Shown: positions 3,818 to 64,000 of the stretch, one piece after another | How the letters are laid out: each line of letters begins with the position of its first letter | Position numbering within the stretch: the first letter of the stretch is position 1 | From: a virus | Taxonomy: Duplodnaviria; Caudoviricetes | Virus record (IMG/VR): IMGVR_UViG_3300013800_000007 | Span: 5,124-69,123 of that record | Direction: 5' to 3' (one strand) | DNA: 64,000 nucleotides | Program-made: the position numbers and the translations under genes | Notes under the pieces: model-generated | Databases searched by the model: none | Seen by the model: only the letters and a program-made list of their open reading frames with translations | What the model was told of the DNA's origin: nothing

Positions 3818-5014
3818 GTGGCGGATTTGTTGTTCTGGCTCTGGCCGATTTGTAGCGTACTCGCCACGGCGGCTTATGCTGTCTGGCAGCGCCGGCAGAT
3901 GGAGCTCATCAAGGACAAGCTGGCTGACTGCGAGAGGAAGGCCGCCGCCAACGAGTATTGGTGCGGCGCTGTCGACCGACGAGCAAGCGACCTGGCCGAC
4001 GTCGCCAAGGTCGCCGCCGAGCGCATTGCCGCCCTCCAATCCGCAGAACCGACCGGCCACGTGTCGCGCGCCGAGCTCCACAACGAGATCTCGCACATCG
4101 CCCAGGCCATCCTTTCGCTGAACAAGCGAACAATCGACATCGGCAAGAGCGCCGACGAGGCTAACGCCGCAGCCATGAAGTACGTCGGTGACGCAGTAAA
4201 CAATTTGTCTGAGGATATCAGCGGAGTTGACGATAAGGTGGAGGCCGCGCTCAAGGCTGCTCACACCGAGTCGTCTCTTTTTCGTGCCGCCGTTGCCGCC
4301 ATTGAGACCGAGACGACGAGGATCTCAAATGTTGTGATCGGCGCCTCCAAGAACGCCAAGGTGGCGGTCGACTTGCTCGAAAGCATGAATGTGGAGCTTC
4401 GGGAAACGTCTGCCCGGGCAACCACCCTGCGGACAGACCTTGATCGCTTCACGAGTGACTCTACGACGGCCTACCAGGCCCTCGAGAGCGACCTGGGTGA
4501 GATCGTGGCGGCTGTGCAATCCTACGGCGACCGCCTGGATGGCACGGACGTCAGCATTGGGACCCTGTTCTCGCGAGCCGACGAGGCGCTCAGCAACTCC
4601 GCCAGGGTTGCCACACGCATGTCTGATCTTACCAGCCGGGTTGATGGGATCGACGAGACCATAGACGAGCTGGACGACTGCCTCACCAAGCTCGAGGATC
4701 AAACCGTTCCCGACGTCGCTGAGCAGGTTGGCGCGCTACGTCAGAGGCAGAACGACCTCCTGAACGCCACCATGACCGACTACGCATCAATTTCAAAGCG
4801 GGTCGACCAGCTTTCCACTCACCCAAGCGGCTCCGATCTTCGTGAGCTCATCCTGTCGTCGAACCAGCAGCAGGCAGCCGAGACCAATCGTATCGCCATG
4901 GAGCTGGGGAAGGCCATAGATCAAATGGCGGCCCGCCTCGCCAAGCTGTCCAAGGCGCGGACACGCTTCGTTCAGCGTCCAGCGCCTCGCCAAATTGAGG
5001 CAGCTGCCCAGTGA
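3818..5014 (+). CDS. membrane-anchored long coiled-coil protein
   Basis: N-terminal hydrophobic segment LLFWLWPICSVLATAAYAVW followed by ~350 aa of heptad-like sequence; GTG start after GAGG. Confidence 0.75.
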   Translation: MADLLFWLWPICSVLATAAYAVWQRRQMELIKDKLADCERKAAANEYWCGAVDRRASDLADVAKVAAERIAALQSAEPTGHVSRAELHNEISHIAQAILSLNKRTIDIGKSADEANAAAMKYVGDAVNNLSEDISGVDDKVEAALKAAHTESSLFRAAVAAIETETTRISNVVIGASKNAKVAVDLLESMNVELRETSARATTLRTDLDRFTSDSTTAYQALESDLGEIVAAVQSYGDRLDGTDVSIGTLFSRADEALSNSARVATRMSDLTSRVDGIDETIDELDDCLTKLEDQTVPDVAEQVGALRQRQNDLLNATMTDYASISKRVDQLSTHPSGSDLRELILSSNQQQAAETNRIAMELGKAIDQMAARLAKLSKARTRFVQRPAPRQIEAAAQ

Positions 5015-43078: not shown

Positions 43079-43245
43079 AGCTTACGCGCCTCCCTGCCAC
43101 TCGCTTCATTGTTCAGATTGATGAGGCCGCAGAACGCACAGCACACCCATGGCTGTGGGTGCTTCTTGTGTCCGTATCGGCGCCAAACGTGAGGCTTGTT
43201 CCTGGCCCTGCCGCTCTTGGCTTTGGGGTCGCTCCAGTTGATCAA
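43057..43245 (-). CDS. small Cys-rich protein
   Basis: CAFCGLI motif; overlaps neighbours. Confidence 0.55.
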   Translation of the reverse strand: MINWSDPKAKSGRARNKPHVWRRYGHKKHPQPWVCCAFCGLINLNNEASGREARKLCQGKDE

Positions 43246-43556
43246 CAGCCGTACTCCTCCGCCAGCTTCGCGGCTCTCTCGAGCAGCTCCGCATCCTCGT
43301 AAAGCAGACGCACTGAGCGATCCTGGGACTTGAGCGCGTCCATCCGGCCGGCGAGCGCCTTCCGGAGCACCTCGCTCGGCTTGTTGCAGTTCCTCACATG
43401 CTTGCCCAGGAAGCCCGTAGACAGCTTTGAGCCAGCCGCTCGAGCGCTTGCCCCGCTCGCCTTGTATTGACCACGCTCAATATTCACGACGGAGTTGTGG
43501 CCCGGAATCCGCAGATCCCGCTCCGCTGTTTGAATTAAGTGGTTCTCTGTCAGCAT
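43242..43556 (-). CDS. hypothetical protein, first gene of the leftward lytic operon (Cro position)
   Basis: Divergent from the repressor; no clear HTH recognised. Confidence 0.5.
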   Translation of the reverse strand: MLTENHLIQTAERDLRIPGHNSVVNIERGQYKASGASARAAGSKLSTGFLGKHVRNCNKPSEVLRKALAGRMDALKSQDRSVRLLYEDAELLERAAKLAEEYGC

Positions 43557-43636: not shown

Positions 43637-43665
43637 ACAGTACACAATACGTGGTTATCTGTCAA
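43637..43665 (-). promoter_or_regulatory. leftward lytic promoter
   Basis: TTGACA-17 bp-TACTGT in the gap next to the repressor. Confidence 0.7.
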
Positions 43666-43682
43666 TGCTTTGGAGAGCGGAT

Positions 43683-44447
43683 ATGGCTCGCGGAAAGAAA
43701 CCACCAGCAGGCTTTAAGCTTGAAGCGCCCGTCAGCGAAACACTAACGGTGAAGTTTTCGGCCGGCTGGAAGGATCGACTGCAGAAGCTAATCCGCGAGA
43801 AAGACACGAATCCACGTCGTCTATCCATCGCTGCCGGGCTCGATCCATCAACCGTCACTCAGGTACTCCGCTCCAGTCGCTCTCCGGGCATCGAAACGAT
43901 TGCCCCGATCGCCGACCAGCTGGGTGTCAGCCTTGATTGGCTCGTTAGGGGTAGGGGCACCGCAGCTCAACCAGCCTTTAGCGGGGGCCAAAATGCAGAT
44001 ATTCAGCAGGTCAAAGTCATCGAATGGGAATCTGTGCACAATTTCGTACTCGGCAAGCACGACAGGGTGGTTGTCATGAGGACGGAGACAACACAGGCAA
44101 TGGATCCGGCGGAGGGTAGATTCCGTCTGGATTTCGCCGGCACCAGCATGGCGCCACTCATCATGGACGGCAGCATCCTTGACTGCTCGACGGCCCTCAT
44201 TGAGGAGCCGGAGGACGTGGTCATTGTGTGGATCGCCGACCAGAAAAAAGCGGTGGCTCGCCAAATCATGCCGGAAAAAGTCGACAAACACGGTCGCATC
44301 ACGCGGGGGAGTCTTGTAACCCCCAACGAAAAGTGGGGCTCCATCGCTTTCGACACATCGAAGGGCGACAAGATCCTCGCGGTTGTCATCGACGTCATCA
44401 GACCACTCCGTCGCGTCAAGCGGCGTGGCGTCAAGATGGCAGCGTGA
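43683..44447 (+). CDS. CI-like repressor (XRE HTH + S24-like C-terminal domain)
   Basis: LSIAAGLDPSTVTQV..IADQLGVSLDWLV; GTSMAP. Confidence 0.88.
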   Translation: MARGKKPPAGFKLEAPVSETLTVKFSAGWKDRLQKLIREKDTNPRRLSIAAGLDPSTVTQVLRSSRSPGIETIAPIADQLGVSLDWLVRGRGTAAQPAFSGGQNADIQQVKVIEWESVHNFVLGKHDRVVVMRTETTQAMDPAEGRFRLDFAGTSMAPLIMDGSILDCSTALIEEPEDVVIVWIADQKKAVARQIMPEKVDKHGRITRGSLVTPNEKWGSIAFDTSKGDKILAVVIDVIRPLRRVKRRGVKMAA

Positions 44448-44800
44448 ACGCTCTCACTTTCGAGCAGGCATCACAGATTCTGGCGTCTCGCGGCATCCAG
44501 ATGTCGCCCCGCGCGTTGCACAATGCAGCGCGATCGGGGAGGCTCGCACAAAGCAAAATCGGCCGACGTTGCTACGTCACCGTAGATGATCTCGAGGAAT
44601 ACATAGCGTCATGTCGCGTACAAAGGGCTCCGCTCCTCGACTCGTCCTGTATGGACCCGATACCAAGCACAAGGCCAAGCGCAAGGCCGGATTCAAGTCG
44701 TACAAGTGGTACATCAGGCACGATCACCTTGGCCGACGTATTGAAAAAACCACCGGCTATGGGATCGGCCAGGAGGTCGACGCCCACCGCGCGCTCCTAG
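44444..44800 (+). CDS. xis: excisionase-like HTH protein
   Basis: GTG overlapping the repressor stop; LTFEQASQIL..AARSGRL..KIGRRCYVTVDDLEEYI; overlaps the int start. Confidence 0.75.
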   Translation: MNALTFEQASQILASRGIQMSPRALHNAARSGRLAQSKIGRRCYVTVDDLEEYIASCRVQRAPLLDSSCMDPIPSTRPSARPDSSRTSGTSGTITLADVLKKPPAMGSARRSTPTARS

Positions 44801-45702
44801 ACTACGTCATGGCGTTGTCGACTCCGGTCGGCACCGACAAGGACCCACTACTCCTTGAGGTGCTGACCGGCTACAAGCTCCGCCGCGCACCGAAACTCAA
44901 ATCAGCGAAAGCCGAGATCCGCAGCTGCGACAATCTCATTGGCGTATCCACCGGGATCCGGGTGTCCCAGGTCAACAAGTCGTGGTGCCAGGCATTTGCC
45001 GACCAGCGCAGAAAGTTGCATAAGCACTCCGACAGCTACATCCGGCGCGAGCTAGGCGTGCTCACCAGAGCGCTATCCCTTGCGGCGGACGAAGGTCGCA
45101 TTGATGCGGCGCCGAAGATCTGGAAGCCGGCGGACGGTGATCCCCGCAGCGCGTTCCTGACGGCGCCGCAGGTTGCCCGCATCGTCCGCTACTTCCGGAG
45201 CCGCGAGGATGGCTTCCGCGGCCTCTTGTTCGTGCTCTTGGGTGTCTACACCGGCCACCGCAAGGAGGCGATCCTGACGTTGCGCTGGGAGCCGCACGAC
45301 GAAGGCGGCTTCGTCGACCTGCAGTCCGGCATGATCGACTTCCGGCAGCGGCGCGCCACTAAAAAGAGGCGGGCCCAGATGATGATCCCGAAGCGCCTAC
45401 TGCCACTCCTCCACCGCGCGAAGCGGGAATCGCGCGCTGGGTGGGTCATCGAGTTTAATGGCAAAGGCGTTAAAACTATTAAATCGCTACTCGACTCGAG
45501 CGTCCTGGAGTCAGGAGTGAAGTGGCATCCGCACATGCTGGCGCACACATGCGCGAGCTGGATGATCATGGGCGGGATCGATATCCTGCGCGTCGCGCGA
45601 CACTGCGGCAAGTCGGTCAAAATGATCGACCAGGTCTACGGGCACCTCATGCCGATGGACGGTCTCCGCCCCAACATCAACATGCGTCGCCGGTGGCTCT
45701 GA
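44611..45702 (+). CDS. int: tyrosine recombinase (integrase) with non-canonical active site
   Basis: YTGHRKEAIL (Arg I), PHMLAHT in place of HxLRH, VYGH (Tyr). Confidence 0.9.
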   Translation: MSRTKGSAPRLVLYGPDTKHKAKRKAGFKSYKWYIRHDHLGRRIEKTTGYGIGQEVDAHRALLDYVMALSTPVGTDKDPLLLEVLTGYKLRRAPKLKSAKAEIRSCDNLIGVSTGIRVSQVNKSWCQAFADQRRKLHKHSDSYIRRELGVLTRALSLAADEGRIDAAPKIWKPADGDPRSAFLTAPQVARIVRYFRSREDGFRGLLFVLLGVYTGHRKEAILTLRWEPHDEGGFVDLQSGMIDFRQRRATKKRRAQMMIPKRLLPLLHRAKRESRAGWVIEFNGKGVKTIKSLLDSSVLESGVKWHPHMLAHTCASWMIMGGIDILRVARHCGKSVKMIDQVYGHLMPMDGLRPNINMRRRWL

Positions 45703-46448: not shown

Positions 46449-46474
46449 GAAAGGGCGGTTAAACCGCCCTTTTT
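46449..46474. terminator. bidirectional intrinsic terminator
   Basis: AAAGGGCGGT-TAA-ACCGCCCTTTT. Confidence 0.85.
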
Positions 46475-47439
46475 CATTTTTCCAACCTGATGCCGCGCCA
46501 ACCCCTATCGTTGGATCTTCTTCTGGGAGCCCCACCGAGATCTTCGCAGTGCGCGGCAAACATGCGATGGAACGCGCCATCCGGCTCGAGCCCCTCCTGC
46601 TTGACCCACCTTGCGTAATGTCCGGCAGCCTCCTTGCTTTTGGTCCACGAGTTCGCATCTGCAACAATGTGCGCGGCAGCCCACCGCTCGAATGGTGAGC
46701 GCGCTACCGCAACGCGCCGATGCGGGGGAGGCCATGTGTGTCTCACGCCCTCCGGAAGCAGAGACACCACAAGAAGCAGCAGGAGGGATTGACCGACCTC
46801 AATCACCTCCTGGTTGGATATGCCACCCATCATCTGACCGATGAGAGTTGCAGATCCATCCGTGGTTCCTATCTTGAGGGCTAGAGCGGTCCTTTCACTC
46901 TCTAGGGCGGCGAGCTCTGCCTGCAGTCGCTCCTTTTCGGTTGCAGCTGCAATGGCATCGGAAAGCTTCTTGCGTTCACTTTTAGTTCTCTCAACGGAAT
47001 CATCCTTCGCCATCGATTTAAGCTGACGAGATGGTCGATTTTCGGTGATGCGTTGTATCTGGGACGTTTTGTCCTTGACGCGCTCATCTGCCGCCATCCA
47101 GTCAGCACGAACCTTGTCCGCCGGGGCGCTGGCAATGCTGGCTTTTTGCTTTGCAGTTGCATATGCGCCCTCAATTGCAATACTCAGGGCGAAAACCCAG
47201 CAGAGCCCAGCAATTACTAGGGTGGCGCCACGTGCCGCCAGATGGCGCCACGTCCGCCAGCACGTGGCGGCTGCTGGCGGGATGGTGACGGCGAGGGCTG
47301 CCATGGCGACGCGCTTCACCGGGATCGCTTCGCCACCGGTCGCCATCATCTGCCAGAGCCCGGGCACACTCAGCCAGACCTCGGTCGCGATGCAGGCGAG
47401 GGTGATTAGGCCGAGAATTATGATGCGAAACGCTTTCAT
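46474..47439 (-). CDS. membrane protein (TM helices + coiled coil) with C-terminal winged-helix-like domain
   Basis: Three N-terminal hydrophobic helices, a coiled coil, a fourth TM, then PFERW...HYARW...GWRGIRL. Confidence 0.75.
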   Translation of the reverse strand: MKAFRIIILGLITLACIATEVWLSVPGLWQMMATGGEAIPVKRVAMAALAVTIPPAAATCWRTWRHLAARGATLVIAGLCWVFALSIAIEGAYATAKQKASIASAPADKVRADWMAADERVKDKTSQIQRITENRPSRQLKSMAKDDSVERTKSERKKLSDAIAAATEKERLQAELAALESERTALALKIGTTDGSATLIGQMMGGISNQEVIEVGQSLLLLLVVSLLPEGVRHTWPPPHRRVAVARSPFERWAAAHIVADANSWTKSKEAAGHYARWVKQEGLEPDGAFHRMFAAHCEDLGGAPRRRSNDRGWRGIRLEK

Positions 47440-50598: not shown

Positions 50599-51978
50599 TC
50601 ATGCCTGAGAAAACCTCTGGCGATAGTAATGCACATTGGGATCTATCAAGACGTCCCACTGCGACATCGGGCGCGCAAGCGTCAGACCCTCATAAGTTCT
50701 CACGCGAGACAATGCTACGTACGTCTGACCGGCGGTGAATGCGCCCTCGCCGAGATCAACGCAAGCCTCGTCAACAGTCATGCCCTGCGCCTTGTGGATC
50801 GTAACAGCCCACGCCAGCCTCAACGGCATCTGGCGAAACGATCCGACCACCTTGCGGACGATCTTGCCGTTCTCGAGCTCAGCCTCGATCTTCTCCCACA
50901 CATTGTGCGTGATGTGGTGGTGGCGTCCGCTCGAGTCGCGCACAACAACGCACGGCGCAACACCAGTTTCGTTGCCATTATCGTCATATGTGGTGATCTC
51001 TGTGATCTCATCGACCGTTCCGATGGTGCCATTGAAATAGCGCCGCTTCGGATCGTTGATGCAGATCATGACTCGAGCGCCAACCTTCACCTCGACAATC
51101 GCGTCAACGATGCAATCGCCTTCGCTCATGTTGTCGATCTTTGCGTGGAAGGAGTGAACCTCCCCCGGGATCATTCCAAGGCGTTCATCGTTGATGATCT
51201 TCGCCGTCTTGCGCTTCGTCACCAAACGCAACACGTCATCATCAGGATTTGCGACGCGAGCGTTGAAGTAGGCCAGCACGTCAGGCGATGCGTCACCCTC
51301 GCGCACCCGGTTCAGCATGCGCGCAAACATGCTCGAGTCGTCCTGCCGAAAGATCTTCGTCAACTCGACGATGTGGAAGTCGATCCCGCAAACCGGCGCG
51401 CAGAAAAACAACGGAGACCCATACAACTGCTGCATGGCCGGGCCGTCAGTCTCCTTAACCACCGGCGGGAGCTGCATCGGATCCCCAAGCGCAATTACCT
51501 GAACTCCCCCGAACGGTTTTTTCGGCTCGCGGCGGACGATGCGGAGCGTCTGATCCATGCAGTGCAAAACATCGCTGCGCACCATGCTGATCTCGTCGAC
51601 AATCATCGCGTCAATGGCGCGCATGACGTCGCGGTTCTTTTGATTCCGCGGATTCCACGCGGCGACCGTCGCATCACTCTCGTGCAGCACCGACAGCGGA
51701 AACCGGAAAAACGAGTGAATCGTTTGCCCGCCGATGTTGTTTGCAGCAATGCCGGTCGGAGCAAGCTTAATGACTCGAAAATCCTCGTCAACAGCTTGCA
51801 TGAGGACATTGATCTGCTCGCTCTTGCCGGTGCCGGCGCGTCCGCACAGAAAGATGTTTCGACCGCTCGCAACGACCTGATGAAATCGCAGCGTCTCGTC
51901 GGTCTGCTCAACTGAGCCACCATCGTGCTTTCGCTTCGCGCTGCGGATCTTCTCGAGGTACTCGTTTTGCAACTTCAT
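50599..51978 (-). CDS. Pif1-family (SF1B) DNA helicase
   Basis: GRAGTGKS, APTGIAA.NIGGQTIHSFF, IVDEISMV, GDPMQLPPV, LTKIFRQ, QMPLRLAWAVTIHKAQG, GQTYVALSR. Confidence 0.95.
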   Translation of the reverse strand: MKLQNEYLEKIRSAKRKHDGGSVEQTDETLRFHQVVASGRNIFLCGRAGTGKSEQINVLMQAVDEDFRVIKLAPTGIAANNIGGQTIHSFFRFPLSVLHESDATVAAWNPRNQKNRDVMRAIDAMIVDEISMVRSDVLHCMDQTLRIVRREPKKPFGGVQVIALGDPMQLPPVVKETDGPAMQQLYGSPLFFCAPVCGIDFHIVELTKIFRQDDSSMFARMLNRVREGDASPDVLAYFNARVANPDDDVLRLVTKRKTAKIINDERLGMIPGEVHSFHAKIDNMSEGDCIVDAIVEVKVGARVMICINDPKRRYFNGTIGTVDEITEITTYDDNGNETGVAPCVVVRDSSGRHHHITHNVWEKIEAELENGKIVRKVVGSFRQMPLRLAWAVTIHKAQGMTVDEACVDLGEGAFTAGQTYVALSRVRTYEGLTLARPMSQWDVLIDPNVHYYRQRFSQA

Positions 51979-54854
51979 TTCAGCGCTCCTGCGCTTGCTG
52001 GAGTCAAGTTCGCGGCGTCAAGCTTTCCGGATGCCACGGCGGCCTTGGCGTGACGAGACAGGAACAGCCTGGTCGACGCTCGCCCTCGAGTCTTTTCCGC
52101 CGCCTCGATGACGTCGCCCTCGGCGAGACAATCGGCGATGAGCGGCGCAATGTGCGAGTTTGCGCAACCAAGAGCGCGGCGGACATCAGAGCGCCTCATG
52201 CCGGCATCTTTGGACTCGTCAAGGACAGCGATGAGCTTCTCCATGAGAGATTGCTTTTTGTCGGCGCTGGGTAGCTGCCTGCGAGCCACGTAGGCGAACC
52301 GCTCCGCCGAGTAGCGGGCGAGGCAGAATCCCCAGACGACGTCAGAACGGGTTACGATCGGCCGGCCGACCGGCGTGAGTGCGTCTCGGCTGCCCCACAC
52401 TCGACTTGCAAAGCGGCTCATCGCCGAAATCAGCGCGAATTTAGCCGCATTCTCGGCCATGCGGCCAAATGCCTGCTCATTGACGCCAGGGGTCGTGAGC
52501 GCCTTCGCCCTAACGGCATCCTCGAGCTGCGATACGTCAGCAATAAATTGCAACGCGCCATCGTCCATGTCGATGATCTCGGCTCGATCGATATCGAGCG
52601 GACCATTGAAATGCTCCATAGACCAGTTGCTGAGCGCGCCTGCAGTCTGAACGACAGACGCCGGAATCTCGTGTGATGCCTCGCCGCGCCAGAATGACTC
52701 GATCGTCGAGCGCATACGGGTCGGATCGATGTCGACTTCGACAATATTCAGTCGGTTGATGTGGCCCTCGGCCAGGGTGTTCGTCGTCATGCCAGCAAAG
52801 AGCGCCTCGGTCGTGGTGGCGCCGAGAATGGTAAGGTGCGGGTAAGGGATCTCCGCCGCACGCTTGCCGGCCATGGCGGTGCCGGTCCACACGCTATTGG
52901 ATGCGCTATACAACGTAAGGAGGTCCGACATGATGCCGGCGGCGTGCTGGTTTTGGTTGCCGCTATTGCTCTGCCAAAACTTGCCGAATTCGTCGGTGAT
53001 GAGCAGCTTGCTCATGGATGTGCCGTCAGCGCGCCGCTTGTCGTCCTCGACCTTCTTGCCGGTCTCCTGCGTCGCCTCCTCCGCCTCTTCCCTGTCGCCC
53101 AGGGCCGCCTCGAAAGCGTTTCTGATGGCTGCGGCGGAGGTGACGTTTGAGCCGAGGACGTGGCGTGTCGTGATACCCAATGCTTTTAAGACAGACTGGA
53201 CACCGTTGATCGCGTGGTTCTTGCCACTCGACGATCGCGCTACGTTGATCATGTAGACGTTGGAGCGGAGACCGGTGCGGAGCTTCACGGATCCGCCGAT
53301 AAGCGTCGAGACCAGCGCGATGCCGGCCGACACCGAGAACGGCATAATCTTGCGCGGCGCCGTGGCGCAATTCCACTCCGAGAACTCACGGATTAGCCCG
53401 TCGGGAGGCATAGACAACTGATCCGGAACCAGAGGCTTGTCTTGCGGCGTCACGCGCACCACCAGGCCGCCATACTTCACCGGCGTGTCGAGCTCGGTCG
53501 GATCGTTGTCGCCATTCAGGAGCGTCTCAATGCGGCGGAGCATGTCGTCATTGGCGAGCGACTCCGGCAGCACTTGAATGTCGGTAAGTGGGCAGGCTTG
53601 AGCTAGGATCTTGGCCGAGATCTCGGCGATCTGCTCAGCGCTGGGCGCGGGAACGTCGACCGGGAACGGCGTGAGAGGGAACTTGGACTCCCATAGGCGA
53701 CGTGTGGCCCCGTTGTTCAACGCCTCGATCTGGCGCATCTCGGCCGATAAGTGCCTGATATAGGCTGCAAATTCGGCAGGGGTAAGGCGTACGTCGCGCC
53801 GCTGGTCGCCATGAAGCGCTGGGTCAAACTCGAGCGTGATGGGCCGCGGCCGCTCGGCCTGGGGCGCCCACTCCTCGATGCTGTCGCCGATCGCCCGCAG
53901 ATCGATATGCAGGTTCTCCGGCTCGCGGTGGAGGCGCACCTCCCGGGGAAGCTTGATGCCGTGGCGGCTCAGGATGTTGACGAGCGACCCTATACCGGTG
54001 GATCCGCGGTTGTTCTGGGCGGTGTTCCAGCGCCGCAGTGTCTCGGTCGAGCTGTACTTCGGATGCTTCGCGCTCCAGGCGTCGAACTGGTCGAACGTGG
54101 CCCCAGCATTGACTGCAGCGATGCAGACGCGCGTCCAGTCGTCCCAGCCGCCCTCGTTGGGCAGAGCATTCAGGATCCAGTCGATCGCGGCTGGCTCAGC
54201 CTGGTCAGACCGGTTCGAGGCGGGAGCGGCGCTCGAGGGCGCAGCAGCCCGGCGCACACCAGATACCTCCTCGTATCGTTGCGCAATCAACTCGATCTGG
54301 GCAGCGGAGATTTCAGGCAGCTCATCGACCGGTGTGTCTGCCGGGCTACCATCGCGCCAGACGTACTCGCGAGCGGTGTCTGGGTGTATGCCGTAGGAAA
54401 CGAACTGGCGGCCATGGGAGAGGATCTCCATGCCGTACTTGACGCCGGCAGCTTTATCGATCCACCAGGGCGGCATGTTCTGGGAGGCGATGGCGTCCAC
54501 CGCCCGGTACATCAGGAGTCGCTTCGGCGCGCGGCCGGTGCGGGTGGGCGCTTCCTTAACGCCGGTGATCCTCAGGACGTCGGCCTCAAAGCTCTCGGCG
54601 ATGTCAGCATCGAGAATGTCGATGTCGACCCCGATCACGGATCCGCACGCGATACCGACGCCGCACTCCAGGGATGACCACAGGTCGACCGCGTATTGAT
54701 CGGGCGGCTCCGTGCACCAGTGCTCCCATTGCGTGATGGCGACCACCGTGCCGTCGAGCGCATGATAGCCCGGACGCTTCCCCCGCGGGAGGATCGGAAT
54801 GGCGCTGTAGCCGTTGTCGATCGATCTGCGCCCGAAGCGCTTGTAGTACGTCAT
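51975..54854 (-). CDS. primase-polymerase with PriCT-2-like region, helicase-like (DUF3987-like) domain and C-terminal winged helix
   Basis: GIACG..IGVDID (Prim-Pol); WDDWTRVC..FDAWS..KY (PriCT); SSSGKN P-loop, DEFG; terminal HTH. Confidence 0.88.
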   Translation of the reverse strand: MTYYKRFGRRSIDNGYSAIPILPRGKRPGYHALDGTVVAITQWEHWCTEPPDQYAVDLWSSLECGVGIACGSVIGVDIDILDADIAESFEADVLRITGVKEAPTRTGRAPKRLLMYRAVDAIASQNMPPWWIDKAAGVKYGMEILSHGRQFVSYGIHPDTAREYVWRDGSPADTPVDELPEISAAQIELIAQRYEEVSGVRRAAAPSSAAPASNRSDQAEPAAIDWILNALPNEGGWDDWTRVCIAAVNAGATFDQFDAWSAKHPKYSSTETLRRWNTAQNNRGSTGIGSLVNILSRHGIKLPREVRLHREPENLHIDLRAIGDSIEEWAPQAERPRPITLEFDPALHGDQRRDVRLTPAEFAAYIRHLSAEMRQIEALNNGATRRLWESKFPLTPFPVDVPAPSAEQIAEISAKILAQACPLTDIQVLPESLANDDMLRRIETLLNGDNDPTELDTPVKYGGLVVRVTPQDKPLVPDQLSMPPDGLIREFSEWNCATAPRKIMPFSVSAGIALVSTLIGGSVKLRTGLRSNVYMINVARSSSGKNHAINGVQSVLKALGITTRHVLGSNVTSAAAIRNAFEAALGDREEAEEATQETGKKVEDDKRRADGTSMSKLLITDEFGKFWQSNSGNQNQHAAGIMSDLLTLYSASNSVWTGTAMAGKRAAEIPYPHLTILGATTTEALFAGMTTNTLAEGHINRLNIVEVDIDPTRMRSTIESFWRGEASHEIPASVVQTAGALSNWSMEHFNGPLDIDRAEIIDMDDGALQFIADVSQLEDAVRAKALTTPGVNEQAFGRMAENAAKFALISAMSRFASRVWGSRDALTPVGRPIVTRSDVVWGFCLARYSAERFAYVARRQLPSADKKQSLMEKLIAVLDESKDAGMRRSDVRRALGCANSHIAPLIADCLAEGDVIEAAEKTRGRASTRLFLSRHAKAAVASGKLDAANLTPASAGALK

Positions 54855-54887
54855 TTTCCCTCGGCAGCGCAAAGTCAGTGCGTGGCG

Positions 54888-61916: not shown

Positions 61917-62200
61917 TTCACGAGGTCATCCCACCAGACGCGAGACACAAAGGTGGCGTTGATGCTCTCTGAGAGCTTCCCAGCGCGGTAGATGTCGTAC
62001 CAAACGACGGTGATGTCGTCCCGGCGCTCGATGCGCTCGATGCTGTCCTGGCCAACGTTGTGCCAGATGAGAATCGGCGTCTCGGTGCGGATGGCCTTGA
62101 TGCGGCGGTTCTGGTCCCCCGGCTTGCCCATGGTAACATTCAGCTTGAGCGTTTCGCGCTTTCTTACGTCTGGCCTTGCCGTAGCTTCGGTGTCCGACAT
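61913..62200 (-). CDS. hypothetical protein
   Basis: GGAGG RBS; first gene after the 62236-62264 promoter. Confidence 0.6.
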   Translation of the reverse strand: MSDTEATARPDVRKRETLKLNVTMGKPGDQNRRIKAIRTETPILIWHNVGQDSIERIERRDDITVVWYDIYRAGKLSESINATFVSRVWWDDLVK

Positions 62201-62235
62201 GCAACTCACCTCCGTCTGGTTACGAATGACGTGTC

Positions 62236-62264
62236 ATTATTCACTATGTGTGGTCAGTTGTCAA
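62236..62264 (-). promoter_or_regulatory. putative sigma70-type promoter
   Basis: TTGACA-17 bp-AATAAT. Confidence 0.5.
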
Positions 62265-62274
62265 TGTGACCGGG

Positions 62275-62451
62275 TCATGACCGCTTCTCCCCCTTCGCGC
62301 TGGGTGCGTCCGGAAACCGGATCTGCTTGTGATAGCTCGCCGACGGGCCCACAGCGTCGAGATGGACGCGGAGGAGGTAGCCGACACAGAGGGCACAGAC
62401 GACCGCGGTGAGCAGGCCCAGCGCCCCGATGATGAGGTTGGTGGGGGTCAA
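62275..62451 (-). CDS. small membrane protein (not in ORF track)
   Basis: TTG overlapping the upstream stop; LTPTNLIIGALGLLTAVVCALCVGYLL. Confidence 0.5.
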   Translation of the reverse strand: MTPTNLIIGALGLLTAVVCALCVGYLLRVHLDAVGPSASYHKQIRFPDAPSAKGEKRS

Positions 62452-62804
62452 GCGGCGGCCTCGCGGAGCTTGGCGATGCCGGCGTCGGTGATGGAGAGCT
62501 CGGTGGTTGCTCTGCCTCTCGTCTTGACGGCGCTCTCCGTGATAAACCCACTCGCAAGCAGCTCAGCAACGGCGGGCGCTATCTTGGAGTTAGCACAGCC
62601 GATCCACCCGCGAATTTCAGAGCGTCTGCAATTTCCACCCTCAAGCAGACGAAGAATCTTGGTGGGGGTGACATCCCTTGATTCGGCTCGACGTCGTGCC
62701 TTGCGCTTTACCGCCTCATCCTTGAGGGCGCGTGCCACCGCCAGCAGCAATGCATCAACGAACGTGGATGAGAGGGGGAGGGTGCGAAGTCTTTGTCCGT
62801 TCAT
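62448..62804 (-). CDS. winged-helix protein paralogous to the primase C-terminal domain
   Basis: RRSEIRGWIGCANSKIAPAVAELLASG...KTRGRATTEL. Confidence 0.8.
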   Translation of the reverse strand: MNGQRLRTLPLSSTFVDALLLAVARALKDEAVKRKARRRAESRDVTPTKILRLLEGGNCRRSEIRGWIGCANSKIAPAVAELLASGFITESAVKTRGRATTELSITDAGIAKLREAAA

Positions 62805-63217
62805 ACCGCTGCCCCTCCGTCAATGCCCGCAGCGGCGCGGCGGAGTAGGGTGGCAATGTTCTGGATGCCGTCCTTGTTGACGCCGGGCATCATGAAGCAG
62901 GCCGGCCGGCGCGTCGTACTTCTCGGCTCGAGCTTGACGGCGCCCAGTTCGACTGCCAGTCGCAGTGCGGGCCGGGCCATAGCTGAGCTACACCCGATGA
63001 GGCGGCGCGCCTCAGATATCGGCTGGCCGGGATTCTTGAGGACCTCGTGAGCCAGTTTCAGGATCATGCCGGCCTCGACCGCAGCGCGGCCGGATATGCC
63101 CTCCTGGCGCGCTATCTCACGAAAGTGATTGTAGTCTGAACGCTTACTAGAAATTTCCAGCCCGATCGCGCCGGCGATCATGTCGAACCCACTCTTAGAT
63201 TTCTTCACTTTTTCCAT
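62801..63217 (-). CDS. winged-helix DNA-binding protein
   Basis: ISEARRLIGCSSAMARPALRLAVELGAV; GGAG RBS. Confidence 0.65.
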   Translation of the reverse strand: MEKVKKSKSGFDMIAGAIGLEISSKRSDYNHFREIARQEGISGRAAVEAGMILKLAHEVLKNPGQPISEARRLIGCSSAMARPALRLAVELGAVKLEPRSTTRRPACFMMPGVNKDGIQNIATLLRRAAAGIDGGAAV

Positions 63218-63388
63218 TGTGACATCTCCGTTTGATGCCGACGAATCGGCGACCCATTGACAACTCACCATGTCAATGGTCGAGCGTCATGGTCAAATCA
63301 CAAGACTGTGATTGCGACAAGGTAGAAACAGCCGGAAAGAGGTGAACTCAAGGGCGCAACAAGGATGCAACTTTGAGGGCTTCTGACG

Positions 63389-63564
63389 TATAAACCAACT
63401 CAAGATGCGAGCTATTTGCTTATAAACCAACTCAAACAGCGAGCTATTTGCTTATAAACCAACTCAAACAGCGAGCCATTTGCTTATAAACCAACTCAAA
63501 CAGCGAGCCATTTGCTTACAACACAACTCAAACAGCGAGCCATTTGCTTATAAACCAACTCAAA
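63389..63564 (+). repeat. 5.5 tandem copies of a 32-bp unit (iteron-like)
   Basis: TATAAACCAACTCAAACAGCGAGC(T/C)ATTTGCT at 63389, 63421, 63453, 63485, 63517, partial at 63549; no spacers. Confidence 0.95.
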
Positions 63565-64000
63565 AAATAAGCTCTTGGGTGGTTGATGTTGCCACTCAGA
63601 ATGCTGACGCCTTACTCAAGATGCTAATTCGTTAAAAAATTACTGTACTCAAACCCTCGATAGAAGTTCGATCGACGTACTAGTCATGTAGACAAGCGAA
63701 CAACCACAACCGACAACTATACTGTTAACCTTTTCGACAACTCAATATGTCAGTTTTTGAGGATCAGGTTGCATATATACAGCGTTCAATTCAATTTCTG
63801 GTTGACCGGAAAATGTCGTTCTGATGCCGTTCTGAGAGCTTAGAACGTCGAAAACTCCAATGAAATCAGGCGTTTGACCTTAAATACTACTGACGGGGGG
63901 GGGCACCCTTTCGCAGACACAGATCCATTCCCTGTTCTGTTCGACTATATAAGCACAAAATACTTATTCTTATTCTTATTATATATAAGGGGGGGGGAGG
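63565..64000. other. AT-rich non-coding region with G-runs (candidate origin or genome end)
   Basis: No ORF in the track; AT-rich relative to the genome; TTATTC repeats and poly-G near the end. Confidence 0.5.

Follow-up and report, generated by a model that had tools for sequence, protein, structure and literature searches.

A free-standing paralogue of the primase C-terminal winged helix beside a 32-bp repeat array in a temperate phage

The closest precedent for the locus described here, a gene for a small winged-helix protein (P0001) in a temperate phage, is the Cnr protein of P4, a small predicted winged helix that partners the C-terminal origin-binding domain (OBD) of the primase-helicase at repeated origin sites, with control of replication as the outcome. 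Yeo et al. reportedly proposed in 2002 (Mol Microbiol 43:855) that Cnr is a winged helix that pairs with the OBD of alpha as a heterodimer, and the alpha primase itself is DnaG-like. The short forms of papillomavirus E2 keep only the DNA-binding and dimerisation module and compete or heterodimerise with the full-length factor; they are made from one gene through alternative promoters or splicing, whereas P0001 comes from a separate, long-diverged gene. In P4, cnr acts in copy-number control (PMC8628076), and C-terminal winged helices of initiators bind origins or iterons in P4 alpha and in the Rep protein of Staphylococcus aureus pathogenicity islands (SaPIs) (PMC2777425, PMC9371898). In the self-loading helicases SaPI Rep and PriRep it is the C-terminal winged helix that reads the iterons, and the origin consists of iterons and an AT-rich region (PMC9371898), while for ORF904 of the archaeal plasmid pRN1 the C-terminal winged helix was proposed to read the origin and a cognate site was not found (PMC2777425). 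The window that we analysed comprises 64,000 nucleotides, bases 5124-69123 of one 69,123-bp contig (IMG/VR record IMGVR_UViG_3300013800_000007), and carries near its right end P0001, which the alignments identify as a true paralogue of the C-terminal tail of the phage's own primase.

Compared with these systems, the locus shares with Cnr a small winged-helix protein (118 amino acids, aa, with a modelled winged helix-turn-helix, wHTH) and departs from it in its placement. P0001 is not directly upstream of the initiator in the same operon, as cnr is just before alpha: with the end of its gene at 62448 and the start of the primase gene at 54872, P0001 lies 7.6 kb upstream in a cassette of its own, and a strong promoter and about ten genes separate the two. 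In contrast to P4, P0001 is a clear sequence paralogue of the initiator tail, its modelled fold is MarR/PadR-like, the initiator is of the Prim-Pol and not the DnaG type, and the cassette has in addition a possible second winged-helix gene and an open reading frame (ORF) for a membrane protein. The order Prim-Pol, then putative NTPase/helicase, then C-terminal winged helix resembles that of pRN1 ORF904 (PMC2777425, PMC4234260); unlike P0001, the partner protein on that plasmid, ORF56, is a repressor of the ribbon type that acts on the replication operon and not a copy of the initiator tail. For SaPIs, no free-standing copy of the winged helix has been described.

A free-standing paralogue of the primase tail

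In BLASTP, P0001 and the last ~80-110 residues of the primase are identical at 32 of 77 positions (E 1e-13), and their Smith-Waterman score of 141 was approached by none of 2000 shuffles (30.4 +/- 5.4). A sequence-only reading of the window had proposed P0001 and the adjacent P0002 as free-standing duplicates of this domain; both ORFs are present, and for P0001 the pairwise alignment and the structure model bear the proposal out. The ungapped block, from residue 60 of P0001 and residue 893 of the primase, does hold the 26 identities counted in that reading, over 47 rather than 44 residues. A four-sequence alignment stretches the match over most of P0001, with low identity outside residues 36-106. 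The DNA of the block has diverged, as had been claimed: 80 of 141 nucleotides are identical, and the identities at the three codon positions are 0.62, 0.79 and 0.30. Since synonymous sites are saturated (proportion of synonymous differences, pS, 0.77), the copy is old, and with a nonsynonymous divergence (dN) of 0.40 in the same block both copies have been kept under purifying selection, P0001 being neither a recent repeat nor a decaying fragment. Its codon score is positive, and codon-usage scores prefer the minus-strand frames of the cassette over a longer ORF that overlaps them on the plus strand.

P0001 matches only the tail of a primase, as would a dead remnant of the 3' end of a displaced primase gene. 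We regard this origin as extremely improbable: the frame is intact, with start/stop overlaps on both sides, dN is 0.40 despite the saturated synonymous sites, the codon score is positive, no helicase-like sequence lies upstream, and P0002, the next ORF, matches the winged-helix part only. As to the direction of the duplication, two relatives of the primase are informative, P0009 (83% identity, ENA, from a 25.5-kb contig) and P0010 (37%, from a 10-kb contig). Both keep a tail of the winged-helix pattern, and the tail is therefore ancestral in the primase, with P0001 derived from it.

The structure of P0001 was modelled from an alignment of P0001 with three primases (mean predicted local distance difference test score, pLDDT, 77). 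The model has a long N-terminal helix (residues 14-43), helices at 47-55, 61-68 and 72-85, a strand at 59-60, a beta-hairpin wing at 88-105 (strands 88-95 and 98-105) and a C-terminal helix at 107-117, that is, the H1-strand-H2-H3 core followed by a beta-hairpin wing that defines the MarR/PadR-like class. The best Foldseek matches in the PDB are PadR-family regulators, among them PadR on operator DNA (E 1e-4 to 7e-4). In VIA-align, MarR, PadR and HxlR proteins superpose with Z of 12-12.8 and root-mean-square deviations (rmsd) of 1.1-1.9 A over about 72 residues, best with MarR (Z 12.8, rmsd 1.3 A over 72 residues), and some of the MarR alignments reach back to residue 16-21. With such regulators (e.g. 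3vod, 5x11) P0001 has in common the dimerisation helix, the three-helix wHTH, the beta-hairpin wing and the C-terminal helix; relative to MarR it is shorter, lacks the last helix and is expected to have no ligand pocket. Further look-alikes of the fold are the centromere binders pNOB8 AspA (Z 11.3) and TubR. The OBD of P4 (1ka8) is absent among the fold matches listed, which does not exclude a likeness to it.

In sequence, P0001 falls below the thresholds of the MarR and PadR families: no Pfam model exceeded its threshold, PadR (PF03551) staying at 12.1 bits where 27 are required (E 0.21) and MarR giving no match, and there was no NCBIfam match. Sequence searches of the PDB gave no match either. 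The identities between P0001 and the primase concentrate in helix 2, the turn, helix 3 (the recognition helix) and the wing. In the model the GCANS-x-IAP segment, which had been named as the likely recognition helix, forms the turn and the first turn of that helix, and KTRGRA forms the tip of the wing. By analogy with MarR/PadR-DNA complexes, the conserved recognition helix and wing tip would be the parts that contact DNA.

The primase (965 aa) has the Pfam domains Prim-Pol (E 9.5e-9) and PriCT_2 (E 1.3e-11), and no Toprim, D5_N or Pox_D5 domain in Pfam; PHROGs likewise assigns it to Prim-Pol-type DNA primase families. The sequence-only reading had taken it for a P4 alpha-type enzyme, a classification that these domains contradict, since Prim-Pol and PriCT_2 are found and none of the three others. 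Its middle part has a Walker A-like SSSGKN and a Walker B-like LLITDEFG, with no Pfam match and no sequence match in the PDB, and the relative P0010 carries a precomputed DUF3987 match. Taken from these motifs and domains, the probable layout is Prim-Pol, PriCT_2, a putative P-loop NTPase region and wHTH, which resembles the layout of pRN1 ORF904. With P4 alpha the primase does share a C-terminal winged helix, in that its tail is homologous to P0001, with its modelled wHTH; that this tail binds an origin is a prediction.

Relatives are scarce. A word-indexed search of 5.8 billion proteins with P0001 and P0002 returned none but the queries, and no relatives of either were found in IMG/VR, GTDB genomes or GenBank phages. 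A profile of the shared domain, run against 1.84 billion representative proteins, recovered only the primase, P0001 and repeat-protein noise. Scans of IMG/VR and GTDB with the primase gave no match, and in metagenomes of the Joint Genome Institute (JGI) there were relatives at about 30% identity only. One TARA contig (L004) was considered as a further case of a tail copy and rejected, being a 182-nt DNA repeat that flanks a transporter gene. In that contig a gene for a distant Prim-Pol protein has its final 64 codons duplicated 1.3 kb downstream with 90% DNA identity (L004:3136-3317 and 4465-4646). Within each copy there is a palindrome of 33-44 nt, and between the copies lies a gene for a membrane transporter, on the opposite strand; the structure resembles an insertion whose target or attachment sites were duplicated.

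The P0002-P0001 cassette and the adjoining array

Against both P0001 and the primase tail, P0002 aligns at the corresponding position (SE-R--IGC ... VK---R-TT), with BLASTP E-values of 0.013 and 0.11, Smith-Waterman scores reached by 11 and 8 of 2000 shuffles, respectively (p about 0.005), and an hhalign E of 3.6e-4 at a probability of 37%. Its single-sequence model (pLDDT 61) has a helix-strand-helix-helix pattern, for which Foldseek against the PDB and two VIA searches gave no fold match above background, and its look-alikes by language model are small viral proteins of HTH_5/IclR/MarR type. P0002 is a possible, unproven distant winged helix. The earlier proposal that it is a more distant copy of the domain is weakly supported, with marginal scores and no fold match; the idea of a two-gene module, which leans on this similarity, is doubtful. 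As a gene P0002 scores well, with a positive codon score from the ATG at 63217 and a negative one for the extension 63218-63271.

The stop of P0002 overlaps the start of P0001 (ATGA), and the stop of P0001 overlaps the TTG start of a 58-aa ORF (TTGA), which has one hydrophobic segment and no family match. From these overlaps P0002, P0001 and the 58-aa ORF can be taken as one cassette; it is placed between the replication operon's promoter and the array. The only candidate for a promoter of the cassette itself is a 9/12 match on the minus strand at 63745-63716, upstream of the array, which would read through it. Closer to the first gene, 40 bp upstream of the start of P0002, lies a dyad, TTGACA-N8-TGTCAA, which has the geometry of PadR-type operators and is a candidate for the operator of a dimeric wHTH. 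A near-identical mirror of its left half, TTGACAACTCACCA, lies at 62251-62266, in the replication-operon promoter. The word TTGACA-N4-AC(A/C)A occurs at 18 sites of the genome, many of which have a -10-like hexamer 17 nt further on, whereas the plus-strand site at 63257 has none. A perfect palindrome, ATCACA-N4-TGTGAT, is found upstream of P0002 as well, with a degenerate second copy at 63114-63129; its genome-wide counts are not above chance, and we treat it as a lead only.

These sites are relevant to a first alternative to a role in replication, namely that P0001, alone or together with P0002, acts as a conventional dimeric winged-helix transcription factor that autoregulates the cassette, gates the promoters of its neighbours, or both, through the dyad or the palindrome, and that its kinship with the primase is a matter of history and not of shared function. 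Such a role would fit the best fold matches, which are MarR/PadR repressors including DNA complexes, the dyad upstream of P0002 and its mirror on the replication-operon promoter, which together bracket the cassette, and the many small viral look-alikes that are annotated as regulators. The TTGACA word, however, looks at its 18 sites like a general promoter element and not a private operator, the palindrome is no more frequent than chance allows, and the match of recognition helix and wing to the primase tail, despite saturated synonymous sites, is left unexplained. On balance we think this explanation somewhat unlikely.

The 32-bp array, which the sequence-only reading had correctly placed next to the two ORFs, starts 171 bp from the P0002 ATG, the first start codon of the cassette, and the genome has no second tandem array in non-coding sequence. 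The core of its unit has no other occurrence in the window, an 18-nt stretch of the unit had no exact match in IMG/VR, and Rfam gave no family on 62000-64000. Non-coding tandem direct repeats beside an AT-rich region, which are the marks of an iteron-type origin, are what is found here. Of the 13 genome copies of the heptamer CAACTCA, 9 fall within 62202-63745, and all 9 read on the plus strand; the array holds six of these, and flanking dyad-like sites hold two. The CAACTCA sites at 63261 and 63738 flank the array inside similar segments of about 30 nt. The array units are direct and not symmetric, and one may speculate that a binder without symmetry, for instance a heterodimer, would fit them. 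In the ~1.5 kb across the contig junction (63244-64000 and the first ~800 bases of the contig) there are no GANTC sites, the genome average being ~4 per kb.

A different use of the array would be as a packaging-accessory or partition (centromere-like) site and not an origin, with P0001 and P0002 as adaptors. The array ends about 440 bp from a contig end that bears a G-run and inverted-repeat motifs, and pNOB8 AspA and TubR are among the fold look-alikes of P0001. We hold this to be very doubtful, because a scan of about 45 of the encoded proteins with Pfam or PHROGs turned up nothing of ParA, ParB, ParM or TubZ type, and because the kinship with the primase tail would be left without explanation. 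The motifs at the contig ends consist of a 20-nt word (nine G, then CACCCTTTCGC) at 63895-63914 of the window and at 16-35 of the contig, the two copies being inverted relative to each other and set inward by ~90 bp from the right end and by 15 bp from the left; both ends are G-runs. They may be packaging ends or terminase sites, or partly assembly artefacts.

Genome setting

The right 13 kb of the genome are transcribed leftward. The sigma-70-like strong promoter just downstream of the cassette heads a replication operon for a 98-aa ORF, a GcrA-like protein, an HNH endonuclease, a 3'-5' exonuclease, a MazG-like pyrophosphatase, a deoxynucleoside monophosphate (dNMP) phosphatase and, at its end, the primase and a Dda-like helicase. 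A membrane protein further on (46474-47439, minus strand) has no significant similarity to the phage primase or P0001, and no Pfam match. The features on which the argument draws are collected in Table 1.

Table 1. Features of the window and of the adjoining contig end. Positions are those of the window unless marked as contig bases.
Feature	Position	Strand	Remarks
P0001, 118 aa, free-standing MarR/PadR-like winged helix	62448-62804	-	paralogue of primase C-terminus
Primase C-terminal ~100 residues, domain duplicated in P0001	51975-52286	-	whole gene 51975-54872
P0002, 138 aa, possible distant winged helix	62801-63217	-	ATG 63217, ribosome-binding site GGAG upstream
58-aa ORF, one hydrophobic segment (membrane), third cassette gene	62275-62451	-	TTG start; G+C at third codon positions (GC3) 0.85, positive codon score
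32-bp tandem array, 5.5 head-to-tail copies, 93% matches	63389-63564	.	Tandem Repeats Finder (TRF) score 296
AT-rich non-coding tract to contig end (~440 bp)	63565-64000	.	about 50-68% AT vs about 35-40% in neighbouring genes
Dyad TTGACA-N8-TGTCAA, 20 bp	63257-63276	.	upstream of P0002 start; candidate operator
Perfect palindrome ATCACA-N4-TGTGAT	63297-63312	.	upstream of P0002; degenerate second copy
Sigma-70-like strong promoter TTGACA-17-AATAAT (11/12)	62264-62236	-	heads replication operon
CI-type repressor	43665-44447	+	HTH_3, phrog_4; adjoins integrase
104-aa ORF	43242-43556	-	no family assigned; opposite CI-type repressor
Acb2/Tad1 hairpin-domain protein, 103 aa	contig bases 695-1006, outside window	+	Pfam PF24729, E 2.3e-14, above threshold
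P0012, 81-aa ORF	contig bases 450-695	+	directly upstream of Acb2-like gene; winged-helix-like pattern, basic wing motif

An integrase (44611-45702) and the CI-type repressor mark the phage, by gene content, as temperate. The repressor and the 104-aa ORF opposite to it form a probable lysis-lysogeny switch; the repressor locus has a divergent TTGACA promoter at 43665. That the P0002-P0001 cassette might itself be a lambda-like main immunity region was an idea that came from the outward promoters that bracket it, and it was rejected because the CI-type repressor is encoded elsewhere, beside the integrase, and the plus-strand 63257 site lacks a -10-like hexamer.

A narrower protective role is conceivable, in which the cassette is expressed from the prophage, P0001 silences the origin in the resident phage as well as in related phages that enter the cell, and envelope exclusion is contributed by the 58-aa membrane protein, amounting to superinfection immunity directed at replication. 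Set apart from the replication operon as its own unit, the cassette includes a small membrane ORF, like many accessory cassettes that are expressed in lysogeny, the phage is temperate, and the predicted DNA-contact surfaces are common to P0001 and the initiator. The lack of a convincing promoter for the cassette, with the 9/12 match as sole candidate, and of any family for the membrane ORF nonetheless leads us to judge such a role quite unlikely.

The Acb2-like gene sits just across the contig junction from the array, and its 103-aa product is likely, from its domain, a sponge of cyclic-nucleotide defence signals (anti-CBASS/Thoeris). P0012, a probable winged helix across the junction with a weak MCM4_WHD match (E 0.02), was considered as kin of P0001 and discarded, because its sequence resembles neither P0001 nor the primase tail.

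Replication control as the favoured reading

The likeness between P0001 and the primase is closest in two elements, the NS-x-IAP of the recognition helix and the KTRGRA at the tip of the wing, from which we consider it most likely that P0001 and the initiator recognise one and the same DNA word. We favour, with a probability of roughly 0.4, the reading that P0001 competes with, pre-marks for or heterodimerises with the initiator at its loading site, for which the array and the AT-rich tract are the best candidate. On this hypothesis the array and the tract would serve as the origin, where the primase-helicase is loaded; P0001, made from its own cassette, would share a DNA word with the initiator tail and would occupy or share the array sites; and its occupancy would set when or how often the primase-helicase assembles, P0001 thus acting as a competitor or brake. 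Alternatively, P0001 could act through mixed dimers, as Cnr may do with the OBD of alpha. An extended version, in which P0002 and P0001 form a two-subunit mimic of the origin reader of the initiator, one heterodimer binding each 32-bp unit with P0001 on the half-site of the primase tail and the array being a titratable gate for primase-helicase loading, seems to us unlikely.

Several observations weigh against replication control. Small viral MarR/PadR-like winged helices are common and, going by the look-alike searches, mostly transcription factors, and the data fit a plain transcription factor about equally well; binding of the array by P0001, P0002 or the primase is hypothetical. No DnaA or CtrA boxes were found in the array or the AT-rich region, and 8.5 kb separate the array from the primase gene. 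The essential non-coding part of pRN1 is directly downstream of orf904 (PMC2777425), and in SaPIs iterons of 5-6 bp flank an AT-rich centre immediately after rep (PMC9371898), whereas the phage repeats are 32 bp long, run in one orientation and stand on one side of the AT-rich tract at that distance. The shared domain is an orphan in the databases searched, and a free-standing copy of the own primase tail was found in 0 of 10 more distant Prim-Pol loci or genomes at E < 0.01 (eight metagenome loci with complete primases, Synechococcus phage Ssp-JY40, and Bordetella phage BPP-1, of which 22.5 kb of the record were covered), so that such a copy is unusual in this small sample of ten loci. The finer pattern of residues leans towards replication control. 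At 12 positions within residues 36-106 the primase and P0009 differ, and P0001 agrees with its own primase at six and with P0009 at two, a 6-versus-2 pattern that hints at concerted evolution or a later duplication and is not significant; the six include two wing-tip residues, and at three of the six the outgroup P0010 sides with P0009.

Of the replication-control function that the sequence-only reading had put forward, what stands is a maintained free-standing paralogue of the initiator tail, with the DNA-contact elements, beside the sole non-coding array, and what is doubtful is the two-gene part. The arrangement suggests that the cassette is a built-in brake or helper for the start of replication, a function that is plausible and has a precedent, but rests on one orphan genome.

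If P0001 reads the DNA of the initiator, a replication controller would have arisen by copying the initiator's own origin reader. For P4 Cnr such a logic was proposed mostly from structure; here the sequence paralogy is clear, and the logic can be put to a direct test on three small proteins and a single 176-bp DNA. If the two-subunit version were true, duplication of the DNA reader of the initiator would have given rise to a new phage replication switch, or to an origin-directed immunity against related phages. Should P0001 be only a transcription factor, the locus would still document domain traffic between initiators and regulators. If the replication-control reading is true, it would provide a first handle on origin recognition in the large and poorly studied group of phage Prim-Pol primase-helicases.

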